From a virus (lineage: Duplodnaviria > Heunggongvirae > Uroviricota > Caudoviricetes), in the IMG/VR virus record IMGVR_UViG_2740892219_000010, positions 1 through 64,000 of that record: a DNA stretch of 64,000 nt; one strand, written 5' to 3'. Under the pieces are notes generated by a model. It worked only from the letters and a program-made list of their open reading frames with translations. It was not told the DNA's origin and did not search any database. How positions within the stretch are numbered: position 1 is the first letter of the stretch; each line of letters opens with the position of its first letter. Of this stretch, positions 26,114 to 31,316 are shown piece after piece. A program made the position numbers and the translations under genes.

Positions 26114-26719
26114 ATGCCATCGGATGATGATTTTAACAGCCGTTTCAAACAGGAAGTTGCACGCCGACTGAAGGATTCCCTCAACCTACACCGCCAGTTA
26201 GCAGAAGAGGTTGAGCCGGAGGACGATGAAACTCCGGTTCAGTCTCCTGACGAAGCTTCACCTCAGCCAAAGGTTTCGCACGCCCCCAAAAAAACGGCTG
26301 TCCGTATTCGCGGAATAGCCAGAAAACGAGCTGCCGAAGCTCGCAAAATGGCTGTAGCTGCATCTAGCAAAAGAATTCCAACTGTTACACCCTCTCAACA
26401 AGTCACCCGTACTGAGAGTAAAATCTTGACCGAGTTCACATCTGTGAAACAGGTGAATTCACTTGATACCGAGCATGAGCGCAAACAACTCAACAACAAA
26501 GATTTTGAAGCAGAAATCGCTCTAAAAAAACGATACGGGAAATGGTTCCTGATTATCCTTGCTTTCCAACTTCTGATAATGAATGGTGTATTTATTGCCG
26601 ACGGCGCAGGTAAGCTGGAATTTGAGGATTTAACACTACAGTTGTACATGGGCGGTACTTTGACAGAGGTATTCGGCCTCGTGCTGGTCGTGACAAAATA
26701 CCTTTTTAAACGCAAGTAA
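26114..26719 (+). CDS. membrane protein with acidic/Pro-rich N-terminal region and two C-terminal TM helices
   Basis: 201 aa; starts 10 nt after the peptidase gene; C-terminal TM helices (WFLIILAFQLLIMNGVFIA and LTEVFGLVLVVTKYLF). Its last ~72 nt are duplicated at 31245-31316. Confidence 0.6.
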   Translation: MPSDDDFNSRFKQEVARRLKDSLNLHRQLAEEVEPEDDETPVQSPDEASPQPKVSHAPKKTAVRIRGIARKRAAEARKMAVAASSKRIPTVTPSQQVTRTESKILTEFTSVKQVNSLDTEHERKQLNNKDFEAEIALKKRYGKWFLIILAFQLLIMNGVFIADGAGKLEFEDLTLQLYMGGTLTEVFGLVLVVTKYLFKRK

Positions 26720-26968
26720 CTCTCTCAGTCCAACAGTCTTTCGAAGGCCTTGATCAAAGGGCCTTGATAAATTAGCAGTGCGTTGAAAACAGATAGTTAT
26801 TCCCATCAGTTCCAACGTAATACACATCAAAAAAATCACCATTCTTTTGCTCTAACGTCAACACCTACTCTTAAAAAAATAATTCTCCAAGAATGAGAAA
26901 GTTATTGTGTGTATTAGATAAGATATGAGCTGACACATCTATGGCGTGGAGCCAAATTTAATATGACA

Positions 26969-26992
26969 GTCCGCTCTGTGCCAGGAGCGGAC
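26969..26992 (+). repeat. structured repeat family, partial copy R0
   Basis: GTCCGCTC-TGTGCCAG-GAGCGGAC hairpin matching the 3' hairpin of R1-R3. Confidence 0.6.
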
Positions 26993-27306
26993 GTTGTAAA
27001 GTTTATTTGGAGAATAATGGTTAGAAGAACTATGTAGATCATAGCCCTCTAAAGTCAGTAGTTTTACACCATATAAATGGTCATTTAGAGATAGTACACC
27101 ACCTACAAAAAACGAGATAAAGCGTGCAAGCGGCATGAAGATACATAAAATACTCCATTCTGCACTTGATGTTAGGATGAATACTGACACTCGCTTTGTA
27201 AAGATAAAGATGATCTTGAGGATGATTAGTTTATTAATTATCTCCAATGTTTGTTATTTTGTGATGATAAAGATTCTCTGGATTAATAGGATGGTAATTC
27301 AATTAA

Positions 27307-27335
27307 AAGAGACCTTATAGAAGGCCTCTTTTAAG
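27307..27335. terminator. hairpin terminator downstream of the 27357-27734 gene
   Basis: AAAAGAGACCTT-ATAG-AAGGCCTCTTTT, near-perfect inverted repeat flanked by A/T runs. Confidence 0.45.
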
Positions 27336-27356
27336 TTATGAGAGCTGATTTTATAT

Positions 27357-27734
27357 TCAATAGAGTATTCTCATCGAAGAAATAACCTCATAAAATGTAA
27401 AGACAGCCAGCAAAAAAATACAGATAAAGATAAGGGAAATAGCACACTTAACTAAGGACTGAATCCCCCGAGGTGTTCCCCATGGTTTAGACATTTGGGT
27501 TATAACCCAAATAAATAAGGCCATAAAACAGCAAACACCAGCCAATCCGAGCAGAGATATTATGACAACTCCAAATAGATTTCCAACATCTAGTTTATCT
27601 GTTTTTGCAACTAGGGTTAACAAACCAGCAATAATAGTTGCTATCGATATTCCCGCAATGGTTGTGAGATCAGCGATAACAGCCAGTTTTTCTTTAGTAT
27701 TTCCTTGAGTAAAAACCTCTAAAATTGATTTCAT
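27357..27734 (-). CDS. small integral membrane protein (cargo cassette 1)
   Basis: 125 aa, 3 predicted TM helices, RBS AGGTGG; AT-rich codon usage unlike the phage backbone. Confidence 0.6.
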   Translation of the reverse strand: MKSILEVFTQGNTKEKLAVIADLTTIAGISIATIIAGLLTLVAKTDKLDVGNLFGVVIISLLGLAGVCCFMALFIWVITQMSKPWGTPRGIQSLVKCAISLIFICIFLLAVFTFYEVISSMRILY

Positions 27735-27847
27735 GGAAAATAACCACCTACTATCGATTATATTCAGGAACTTTTTATCATAACGATATCAGATAGATAA
27801 GGATATTGTAATATTTTGGATGATTTAAACTTACTTTTGTAACTCTA

Positions 27848-27915
27848 ATGTCCACTTTTCGCTCACAGCGGACCTTTAGCTCAGTTACCTCGTCCGCTTT
27901 GTGCCAGGAGCGGCC
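27848..27915 (+). repeat. structured repeat unit R1
   Basis: ATGTCCACT...CGCTCACAGCGGAC...GTCCGCTTTGTGCCAGGAGCGGCC; two tandem hairpins sharing stem GTCCGCT/AGCGGAC; in a divergent intergenic region. Confidence 0.7.
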
Positions 27916-28933: not shown

Positions 28934-29689
28934 CTATTCCTTGGCCTCTTTATTCTTCTCGCCATCGCCAATATAAATAAGATAGTCGTTTAAGGATATC
29001 CTTCCGGAGGGACCGGTCCATGTTATCAATCCGTTTTCACGAAGATTAAATAATGCTTCCATGAACTCATTATCGTTAAAAGAATGATCTTCTGAGAACA
29101 GAATGTTCATTTTTCTCAATAGTTCTTCCACTTTAATCTTTTCATATCGCCTTATCAGACTTAGTGCTCTACGACGCATTAAGACTGTAGGTACTGCTTG
29201 TGAACGAATGGTTTTTTGTATTCCACTATCAAGAACTTTCTTAATCTTACTCTCTAATTCTTTGATTTTAGTTTCATTATCTCCATTGGACTTAAGCTTT
29301 TCATCAACGATACAAATAATCTCCTGACTAATGCGGTTCTTGAGTTTGTTTATTTTTTCTTCATTGTTGAGGATCTCATCAGAGCTTCCTGCATGGGGTT
29401 TTTTCCATATGTGCTGACGCATATCCGTTACCGTATCTCTCATCATAGAGAATGTATCTGAATATAACTTGTCAAATATTTTTTCCAGTCGTTCGACACT
29501 TGCCTGGATGTCTTTTGCTGCTTTAGTTGTCTCTTTAGAAGCCTCATTCGACATTTTATAAAAAACAAAAGAAAGCCAAATAGCCCCAATGGCGAGTACT
29601 AATGAGGCTATTGTGGCAATAAAACCTATTATTGTTATTGCTGTATCTAATGTACCTGCTGCATCTGTGACTACTGTTTCTGCTGCCAT
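28934..29689 (-). CDS. membrane-anchored coiled-coil protein (cargo cassette 3)
   Basis: 251 aa; RBS GAGGA; N-terminal hydrophobic segment (IIGFIATIASLVLAIGAIWLSFVFY), Lys/Glu-rich coiled coil, C-terminal globular region. Confidence 0.6.
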   Translation of the reverse strand: MAAETVVTDAAGTLDTAITIIGFIATIASLVLAIGAIWLSFVFYKMSNEASKETTKAAKDIQASVERLEKIFDKLYSDTFSMMRDTVTDMRQHIWKKPHAGSSDEILNNEEKINKLKNRISQEIICIVDEKLKSNGDNETKIKELESKIKKVLDSGIQKTIRSQAVPTVLMRRRALSLIRRYEKIKVEELLRKMNILFSEDHSFNDNEFMEALFNLRENGLITWTGPSGRISLNDYLIYIGDGEKNKEAKE

Positions 29690-29972
29690 ATATCCTCAAT
29701 ATTTAACCATACAGGGTAGCGTGTTTTAACCGCGGGGAAGTCGGGGTGGTGACACCCTGGCCTTACCCCAATTCCAGAGTATTTGTTTATCATACCATTG
29801 AAACTATTTAATTTTATCGAAAATTTTGTCAGAGCGTGACTGAAAAGTCTTCAGCACGTCAAGCAGATCGTCGCCGTTCAATTAGCACTGAACTTTTTCT
29901 TAGTGGGGGGCTGTGCAGTTGCGAAGTTATGCCCCAGTTCCTCACTACATTCTAATTAAGCCGGCCAACTAA

Positions 29973-30036
29973 ATGTCCGCTCCTCGCTCACAGCGGGTCT
30001 TCAGTTGTTCGTCCACTCTGTGCCAGGAGCGGACAT
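29973..30036 (+). repeat. structured repeat unit R3
   Basis: ATGTCCGCTCCT...AGGAGCGGACAT: perfect 12-bp outer inverted repeat enclosing CGCTCACAGCGGG and GTCCACTCTGTGCCAG; in a divergent intergenic region. Confidence 0.75.
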
Positions 30037-30149
30037 TGATTATTCCTCACTGTAAAAATCTTAATGCTAACTAGTGGGAACTATAAGTTGTCAATTGACA
30101 TAATTGTGTATATTTTGCGATTTAAATGTTAAATTTTAGGTGTCGTTAT

Positions 30150-30953
30150 ATGGATGTTAATGAATTTCCACCGGGAGTAATCGAGCATCTTGGCTGGTAT
30201 GTCTACCGCCTGATTGACCCGAGAGATGGTAGTACGTTCTACGTAGGGAAAGGGAAAGGTAATCGTGTCTTTGCCCATATGCGCGGTGAGGTTGCTGCAG
30301 TGGATGATGATGAGTTACTGAGTAACAAACTCAAACAACTTCGGGAGATCAGATTAGCTGGTCTTGAAGTTATCCATGTTATACATCGGCACGGTATAGC
30401 TGAAGAAAAGACGGCTTACGAAGTTGAAGCAGCACTCATAGACGCCTATCCCGGCTTGACTAACATCATGAACGGTGCTGGCAGTAACGAGTTCGGTGCT
30501 GCACACATCAAAGAACTAATCGCTACGTACCAACCTGAAACAATTACGTTCCAACATAAAACCCTAATGATATCGGTTAACAGGAGCTCAAAGGATATTG
30601 ACCTCTATGATGCTGTACGTTTTAGCTGGCGTGTCAGCCTTGAACGCGCTCGTAAGGCAGAGGTCATACTGGCGACAGTAAGAGGAATTGTGAGGGGTGT
30701 ATATATCGCAGATGAGTGGCTCAAGTCTACCCGTGAGAATTTTCCAGAGATACCATCATGGGATGCGGATGATGAATTTGAAGCTACGCAAAGTTCCCGC
30801 TTTGGGTTCCGGGGTAGGGCTGCACCTCCTGAGATTACACAGCTTTATTTAGGTAAGAAGATCCCTGATGATCTCAGAAAAAAAGGTGCTATGTCTCCTG
30901 TGAGATATTCTCCCGGATTTGATTTCGGAATGGAACTGGATTTTAGATCGTAG
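30150..30953 (+). CDS. GIY-YIG domain nuclease-like protein (cargo cassette 4)
   Basis: 267 aa from ATG 30150; N-terminus [28 protein letters not shown] fits the GIY-(~10)-YIG motif with downstream Arg; ~170-aa C-terminal region unclassified. Confidence 0.6.
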
Positions 30954-31170
30954 CCAATATATGGCAGTAATGAATATTTCGGGGATCGTGTTTGCTGCGG
31001 TCATGGTTACCATTAGCAGAATAAAACTTGTGAAGGGACGTATCAAACTAAGGATGCTATGTGCGGTAAAGTTTCAATGCAGGGAACAGATGCTGAAGTC
31101 AAGAAAATGGTCGATTGCCAGACGCAAATGACCCTTTCAAGAATCGCTTTCCTCAGAAACCAATAACTGA

Positions 31171-31205
31171 AGTTTCCTTCAAGCTGGCGCCAGGTGTTAA
31201 CCTGG
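31171..31205. terminator. hairpin (candidate terminator/insulator) at the right edge of the cargo array
   Basis: AAGCTGGCGCCAGG-TGTTAA-CCTGGTGCCAGCTT, 14-bp inverted repeat with one mismatch, followed by T-rich sequence. Confidence 0.4.
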
Positions 31206-31244
31206 TGCCAGCTTAGTCATCAAGTGCATATTTAACTGTTTTAT

Positions 31245-31316
31245 ATGGGCGGTACTTTGACAGAGGTATTCGGTCTCGTGCTGGTCGTGGTCAAATACCT
31301 TTTTAAACGCAAATAG
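31245..31316 (+). pseudogene. 3' gene remnant: diverged copy of the last ~24 codons of the 26114-26719 membrane-protein gene
   Basis: Translates MGGTLTEVFGLVLVVVKYLFKRK*, ~92% nt identity to 26648-26719; upstream in-frame stop at 31233-31235, so no full ORF. Confidence 0.6.

Follow-up and report, generated by a model that had tools for sequence, protein, structure and literature searches.

A relic of a membrane-protein gene end flanks a prophage defence array and probably serves its loss and stacking by homologous recombination

A stretch of 64,000 nucleotides (nt) of viral DNA (Caudoviricetes; IMG/VR record IMGVR_UViG_2740892219_000010, positions 1 to 64,000; hereafter the window) carries a defence array between two diverged copies of the 3' end of one gene, which encodes a membrane protein. 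The upstream copy, c1, is the end of the intact gene; the downstream copy, c2, lies about 4.6 kb further on and is an orphan. Our reading, to which we give a probability of about 0.7, is that c2 is a dead relic of another allele of this gene, that it brackets the defence array together with c1, and that the pair is used for deletion or stacking of arrays by ordinary homologous recombination. The original prediction, made from the window alone, had proposed that the cargo entered at the conserved gene end, either by site-specific integration or by homologous exchange between alleles. The locus is an ordinary recombination scar in a defence hotspot, and the tempting reading of a new integration system that targets a gene 3' end was removed as wrong.

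Results

The gene-end repeat in the window

The repeat involves the following features:
26114..26719, plus strand: intact gene of a membrane protein of 201 amino acids (aa) (open reading frame; phrog_5346, E 2.4e-140)
26636..26719, plus strand: c1, live repeat copy, the last 27 codons and the stop codon of this gene (repeat search, alignment)
31233..31316, plus strand: c2, orphan 3'-end relic of, in our reading, another allele of the gene (repeat search, alignment; located after lprI in relatives)
31341..32129, minus strand: convergent antirepressor (ORF6N/Ant) gene, ant (Pfam PF10543; phrog_4792; 789 nt, as in annotated relatives)

A repeat search of the window returned a direct repeat of 81 nt with 90% identity (26638-26718 versus 31235-31315), and pairwise alignment agreed. 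The full homologous copies cover 84 nt with 11 mismatches (26636-26719 and 31233-31316), so that homology extends about 12 nt upstream of the 72-nt stretch first noted. For the latter, about six substitutions had been predicted, and codon-by-codon comparison of 26648-26719 with 31245-31316 gave exactly six differences from c1 to c2: 26677 C>T, 26693-26695 ACA>GTC, 26716 G>A and 26719 A>G. Identical blocks of 29, 15 and 20 nt remain within the 84-nt repeat. Pairwise alignment showed that the similarity stops at the stop codon, TAA in one copy and TAG in the other, and that the sequences beyond are unrelated. A 45-nt pattern from the repeat matched exactly twice in the window and never in 100 dinucleotide-preserving shuffles.

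An in-frame stop had been placed just upstream of the second copy. The TAA is indeed present at 31233-31235, but it lies inside the homology and not at its junction: the intact gene has a Leu codon here (CTA), as does the relic of the related locus L049 (TTA), and the stop is therefore a decay mutation. An assembly artefact as the source of the arrangement was ruled out, because the same gene order occurs on at least 14 independent contigs encoding the identical 201-aa protein. This protein sequence is also on record from Escherichia albertii.

Natural recombinants with crossovers inside the repeat

We joined the upstream metalloprotease gene (ImmA), the membrane-protein gene up to 26647, c2 and ant into a synthetic sequence and searched it against 5426 complete E. 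coli genomes. In E. coli GPEC172 (L048) it was found in one piece, over 100% of its length and with 99.0% identity. Here, the membrane-protein gene is intact, shows c1 markers upstream and all c2 markers downstream, and is directly followed by ant; the crossover falls in the 29-nt identical block at 26648-26676. The flanks differ from those of a cargo-bearing prophage of E. coli ST131 at only 5 of 2616 and 3 of 2466 nt, and the hybrid protein is encoded on at least 24 contigs with identical neighbours in all of them. This lineage is an empty-site variant of the sort foreseen in the original prediction, with the whole cargo gone and a hybrid gene abutting ant. It is best read as a secondary, precise deletion of the cargo, because much more diverged lineages share the junction between lprI, a captured host gene, and c2.

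The opposite product is present in an Escherichia whittamii locus (L004). Its second repeat copy carries c2 markers followed by c1 markers, and continues into the c1-type native flank, a half inverted-repeat element and another array, with a crossover in AAATACCTTTTTAA, between 26695 and 26710. Judged from these markers, the hybrid would be the expected product of a c2 x c1 crossover between a genome of the L008 type and one of the L009 type (both described below). The additional cargo (L004 12637-14579) is PDC-M25, a candidate two-gene defence system consisting of an ATPase and a partner.

The two natural recombinants cross over at different points in the repeat. Homologous exchange between the copies, as proposed originally, was found both as a deletion in GPEC172 and as an array-joining hybrid in L004, each with its crossover inside the repeat. 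Use of the repeat by homologous recombination in both directions is hereby shown.

Evidence that c2 stems from another allele

Five of the homologous loci (L numbers) bear on the history of c2; a genome-contig scan contributed one relative only.
L002: E. coli ST131 prophage (EC958 and hundreds more), 99% identical to the window up to 26992 and from 31045
L008: IMG/VR contig, in which the cargo begins 22 nt past the c1 stop codon and ends with lprI, c2 and ant
L009: IMG/VR contig with c1, native flank, a different array and the last 13 nt of c2 before ant
L049: E. coli CFSAN061769, without ImmA and membrane-protein genes; array, the defence gene PD-T4-3, HNH gene, lprI, frameshifted c2 and ant
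L063: pig E. coli with two decayed relic-plus-flank copies around IS3, a DUF262 gene pair and lprI

In L002, L004, L008, L049 and L063, c2 follows lprI; in the window, its stop codon is 25 nt away from the end of ant. As predicted, the second copy is an orphan fragment of the same gene: the 5' part is missing and the copies bear disabling lesions: one nucleotide is deleted in L004, L008 and L049, and the copies of the window and of ST131 contain a stop codon. Where c2 does form part of an intact gene, this is the same gene in hybrid form and no separate paralogue.

Across the c2 variants, 7 of the 9 distinct substituted sites are third codon positions, and in L008 and L049 all five substitutions are of this kind and synonymous. 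By our estimate for these 9 sites, such a bias has a binomial P of about 0.008 against an expectation of one third. Furthermore, the c2 copies share markers absent from every c1 (AAG>AAA and TAA>TAG), while the last 72 nt of c1 are identical in the window, L002, L004, L008 and L009. From the third-position bias we conclude that c2 diverged as a working, separate coding allele and that its lesions came later, in some lineages. Both this bias and the c2-only markers agree with the idea of diverged alleles put forward in the original prediction.

The relic is also older than the present cargoes and independent of c1, as can be concluded from the arrangements in L002, L008, L009, L049 and L063. 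It is unchanged beside differing cargoes and occurs without an intact membrane-protein gene in the loci L049 and L063; in the latter, no such gene was found within 6 kb. In L009, c2 is cut to its last 13 nt, and most other loci retain about 84-90 nt.

Cargo differences between relatives

A further expectation was that the array forms a discrete exchangeable module bounded by the repeats. This did not hold: the cargo differs between relatives over 26992-31045, 26741-31042 or 26995-31304, with the usual breakpoints (26741, 26992-26995, 31042-31045 and 31304) inside the repeat-bounded interval. The half element at 26969-26996 marks the left breakpoint of the differences to the ST131 prophage and L009. 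Where single cassettes are shared with P2-like phages, the breakpoints are in inverted-repeat elements, and a deletion inside the captured lprI gene provides a further one. Breakpoints of cargo differences between relatives are mostly not at the repeat.

The conserved end of the membrane-protein gene

The gene, its partner and its flank are arranged as follows:
25616..26104, plus strand: ImmA/IrrE (Peptidase_M78) metalloprotease gene (Pfam PF06114, E 7.7e-18; PADLOC capP-like, E 2.4e-25)
26720..26968, plus strand: native 3' flank ("spacer") of the membrane-protein gene, conserved in L002, L009, L004 (after the hybrid repeat copy) and L063

Every homologous locus examined shows the ImmA and membrane-protein genes as a pair. 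An alignment of 24 homologues revealed that the C-terminal ~30 aa of the membrane protein are near-invariant and that the remainder is 41-52% identical. This conservation reflects constraint on the protein and not a shared DNA site, since distant alleles differ at most synonymous sites. The same differences rule out DNA homogenisation at an attachment (att)-like site as the reason for the conserved C-terminus.

The position of the gene pair differs across prophages (L038, L041, L045, L053 and L054). In Klebsiella, E. coli and Salmonella prophages it lies between the attachment end and the integrase gene, including the serT edge of the pipA-sopB island; in Serratia it is located after the antiterminator gene. 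Integrase genes beside distant homologues were considered as a hint of an att site and rejected: the pair moves together with the phage, and every allele is equipped with a terminator of its own.

From 26911 on, the native flank is homologous to the left inverted repeat of the Z regions of P2-like phages. It is 98% identical to the P2-like loci L013/L015/L022 and is the counterpart of the feature "left inverted repeat" in GenBank AJ512683. In some ST131 prophages (strains S9, R10, R13, AVS0193 and AR_451), an IS1 copy is inserted in this flank, which places it within the repeat-bounded interval.

Alternative explanations for the repeat

An in-situ tandem duplication of the gene end in one genome, with the downstream copy then decaying neutrally, would account for a direct repeat of local sequence and for the disabling lesions in c2. 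We consider it very unlikely in view of the concentration of substitutions at third codon positions (7/9), the unrelated sequences after the two stop codons, and the complete identity of the c1 copies next to c2 copies that share markers seen in no c1. Retention of c2 beside ant in most relatives, including varying cargo contexts, is also what a functional element under selection would show, be it a 23-codon mini open reading frame or a regulatory or terminator sequence for ant. Such a role is extremely unlikely: three loci (L004, L008 and L049) carry the fragment with a frameshift and L009 has just 13 nt of it, it lacks an evident ribosome-binding site, no terminator-like site was found, promoter-like matches are no commoner than in shuffles, and an Rfam search gave no match.

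Entry of a circular cargo element that carried a gene 3' end and used a dedicated recombinase, with regeneration of the reading frame, fits diverged direct repeats of a gene end flanking foreign DNA, and the ImmA-membrane pair of distant homologues does adjoin a phage integrase gene. An empty site also exists, in GPEC172, and its sequence is a recombinant of the two copies, which is equally expected from homologous deletion. Yet scans with Pfam, PADLOC and PHROG identified no recombinase, integrase or transposase among the open reading frames at 26720-31232, and the only integrase of the ST131 relative is at the tRNA-Leu end of the prophage. The junctions vary, with 13 nt of c2 in L009 versus about 84-90 nt in others, and so does the left cargo boundary, from 26741 to 26992-26995. 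In addition, c2 occurs without an intact gene, the natural recombinants cross over at different places, and there is no shared att-like core, because the integrase-adjacent homologues differ throughout at synonymous sites and have their own terminators. Site-specific integration, the first proposal of the original prediction, is consequently most improbable. A version with homologous recombination fares better, in which the cargo circulates together with one gene-end copy as a looped-out circle and enters phages by a single, Campbell-type crossover in the 84-nt homology. For the GPEC172 deletion, the reciprocal product would be such a circle, L004 demonstrates c2 x c1 recombination between genomes, and in L063 two relic-plus-flank copies bracket IS3, DUF262 and lprI. 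This route leaves the first duplication unexplained, and it gives no reason why c2 should start about 20 nt past the lprI segment; no circle junction was observed outside a chromosome, and most cargo differences between relatives map elsewhere. We therefore regard it as unlikely, though not negligible, and the same applies to its corollary that the repeat is both product and substrate of cargo gain.

Proposed history of the locus

The preferred reading, a dead relic used by ordinary homologous recombination, needs an origin for c2. The fragment was probably made by an illegitimate join, because it starts about 20 nt past the 1.2-kb host-derived lprI segment, which ends at L002 5938 and at about 31212 in the window. 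The same join between lprI terminator and relic is found in the window, L002, L004, L008, L049 and the 86%-diverged L063. In the founding event, DNA ending in the lprI moron and its terminator would have been joined illegitimately to a second, once-functional allele, at a point about 85-90 nt before its stop codon, leaving the last ~28 codons with a stop that abutted the convergent ant. This join was most likely made once. The other side of the exchange may have run through homologous DNA of a donor phage with an intact ImmA-membrane pair (c1), its native flank and a cassette array. Later on, the repeat has been used in both directions: a c1 x c2 crossover within one genome loops out the cargo and restores one intact hybrid gene, and a c2 x c1 crossover between two phage genomes stacks two arrays. 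The agent would be general homologous recombination, by host RecA or a phage-encoded system. Usual cargo turnover bypasses the repeats; its sites are the ~70-nt elements within the interval, which P2-like Z regions also have, and one-off junctions.

Several points weigh against this reading. Among the sampled loci there is no donor (membrane-protein gene, flank, array and lprI without the relic), which makes the founding event a reconstruction, and no full-length parent allele of c2. The reading does not account for the 15-20 nt between terminator and relic (31213-31232), and the codon-position test uses only 9 sites. The empty-site lineage could in principle be ancestral instead of a deletion; the near identity of GPEC172 to the cargo-bearing prophage argues against this. 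Finally, a different order of events explains the data about equally well: the cargo was inserted upstream of a resident ImmA-membrane pair, the 5' part of the pair was then deleted, which is what L049 looks like, and the present arrangement arose when this structure later recombined with a phage whose pair was intact.

Cargo between the copies

The interval contains four genes, followed by the remains of lprI:
27357..27734, minus strand: cassette 1 gene, 125-aa membrane protein (phrog_4155)
28177..28653, plus strand: cassette 2 gene, DUF6650 protein (Pfam PF20355, E 7.2e-16; P2-like loci as for cassette 1)
28934..29689, minus strand: cassette 3 gene, 251-aa protein with an N-terminal membrane segment (DNA match to Peduovirus P22H4)
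30150..30953, plus strand: PD-T4-3 defence gene, LEM-3-like GIY-YIG nuclease (PADLOC, E 1.7e-137; Pfam PF22945)
31016..31041, no strand: filler of 26 nt, deletion junction between the PD-T4-3 cassette and the lprI remnant, unmatched in L049
31042..31212, plus strand: lprI 3' remnant (last ~35 codons) and palindromic terminator (31181-31214), 98% identical to the ST131 lprI end

PD-T4-3 is a known single-gene anti-phage system; its start at 30150 was taken from gene calls. The cassette (29973-31015) is 97% identical in L049, L030, L018 and L026. A role of the GIY-YIG protein as a homing endonuclease or recombinase of the array was rejected, given its identity as PD-T4-3 and its place in a single cassette that most relatives lack. 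The other three cassette genes are without a PADLOC match and may be defence candidates. In L009, one protein has a weak match to the restriction-like Aga_REase model.

Cassettes 1 to 3 are 96-98% identical to Z-region inserts of P2-like phages. The DNA of cassette 1 is 98.3% identical in P2-like loci, where it lies beside the sheath gene FI; the match extends over 26911-28778 of the window, in loci with a P2-type FI gene. Peduovirus P22H4 has an insert between its tail-fibre and sheath genes to which window positions 28825-29994 are 96.4% identical. The ST131 prophage carries a different cassette together with an intact lprI. GenBank AJ512683 (P2-EC58 Z region) contains this cassette as its ORF1 insert, with a "left inverted repeat" and a "right inverted repeat" annotated on the two sides by the depositors. 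In the prophage of EC958 (L047; 2040000-2089000), which is integrated beside tRNA-Leu, the head, Q and lysis genes are lambda-like and the contractile-tail module is P2-like. This hybrid lambda/P2-like make-up may explain an easy exchange with P2-like phages.

The lprI gene of these prophages is a host gene captured as a moron. The positions concerned are 31042-31212 of the window, L002 4740-5938 and L064 3773-4988. Over a stretch that reaches from about 230 nt before the gene to the end of the terminator, the prophage segment in L002 and a Citrobacter chromosomal locus share 87.7% identity, and LprI homologues with 87-89% identity are widespread chromosomal genes in Citrobacter. The terminator hairpin has a folding energy of -19.4 kcal/mol (z -6.4). 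In the window, all but the last ~35 codons are deleted: L049 has an HNH gene, a hypothetical gene and a full lprI between the flanks that adjoin the 26-nt filler here.

Inverted-repeat elements inside the array

Four elements delimit the single-gene cassettes, all of them detected by repeat and profile matches:
26969..26996, plus strand: half element (right arm, GTCCGCTCTGTGCCAGGAGCGGAC), which opens the cassette array
27848..27919, plus strand: full inverted-repeat element (left arm, linker and right arm)
28747..28818, plus strand: full inverted-repeat element
29972..30038, plus strand: full inverted-repeat element

The full elements are about 70 nt long and contain four heptamers (GTCCGCT/AGCGGAC) in alternating orientation, with conserved asymmetric spacers in the arms (CTCGCTCAC versus GTGCCAGGA). 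We found them in 27 IMG/VR loci, with arrays of the order half element, cassette, full element, cassette, half element; L001, L013, L014, L017, L031, L049 and L050 carry them. The elements as such are already known from P2-like phages. For the P2 Z region, inserts flanked by inverted repeats were reportedly described by Nilsson, Karlsson and Haggard-Ljungquist (2004, Mol Biol Evol 21:1). Neither recent hotspot papers nor later papers citing Nilsson et al. 2004 describe the elements.

A long hairpin and two short hairpins can both be drawn for the 22 distinct elements, and both pair in 83-87% of cells. For neither was covariation greater than in shuffles, the pairing being explained by sequence conservation only, and a conserved folded structure was rejected, also in view of single-strand folds that differ between copies. 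An Rfam search of the elements returned no match.

Comparison with known systems

The elements of the window are homologous to the annotated left and right inverted repeats of P2 Z-region inserts (AJ512683, profile matches). The setting is different: the Z region lies between the tail-fibre gene G and the sheath gene FI, whereas the locus studied here lies between the nin/Q side and ant in a lambdoid-type early region, and only the cassettes are shared. Moreover, the window holds a multi-cassette array outside a P2 genome and inside a second bracket of gene-end repeats.

Integrons exchange cassettes by recombination of attC with attI, catalysed by IntI. The array resembles them in having single-gene cassettes between imperfect ~70-nt palindromes with four short boxes and in that one cassette turns up in different arrays. 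It differs in having cassette genes on both strands and a gene-end repeat without an integron counterpart, and no IntI-type tyrosine recombinase with attI was found within 23000-35000. By analogy, the elements could be the sites of an integron-like cassette system with a recombinase acting in trans, which moves single defence genes between unrelated temperate phages; we put this forward as a tentative idea that is rather unlikely to be correct. If true, lambdoid early regions and other contexts would receive defence genes from P2-like Z regions, and the gene-end relic would add a second, homology-based level for loss or stacking of whole arrays. In any case, the inverted-repeat cassette system within the interval is the more unusual matter at this locus.

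Phages 21 and e14 integrate at the 3' end of icd and bring along a replacement end. As there, diverged 3'-end copies flank an insert in the window, with an intact gene upstream and an orphan copy downstream. In contrast to icd, there is no integrase, constant core or constant junction, and the orphan exists without the gene. The closest parallel is deletion or unequal crossing-over between direct repeats, with precise loss of the interval leaving one hybrid repeat (GPEC172) and a hybrid repeat joining two arrays (L004); we see no essential difference.

In the defence hotspots of P2 and P4, small intergenic pseudogenes have been described as "remnants of an intense process of recombination" (Rousset et al., 2022, PMC9122126; NAR 2026, PMC13586616). 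The locus is similar in being a variable defence locus at a fixed site of a temperate phage with short unannotated gene fragments, and in its cargo, which includes PD-T4-3 and, in the relative L004, PDC-M25. It differs in its position in a lambdoid-type early region, between the nin/Q side and ant, and in a remnant that pairs with a live gene as a working recombination handle. The relic fits the small intergenic pseudogenes of the hotspot surveys, and the point added here is that it serves as such a handle. The window provides a sequence-resolved case of a prophage defence hotspot whose remodelling has two levels, one being the loss or stacking of whole arrays via the 84-nt relic and the other the swapping of single cassettes at conserved inverted-repeat elements. 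Empty-site variants can accordingly be secondary losses instead of ancestral states, and short unannotated hotspot fragments can be active recombination substrates, beyond debris.

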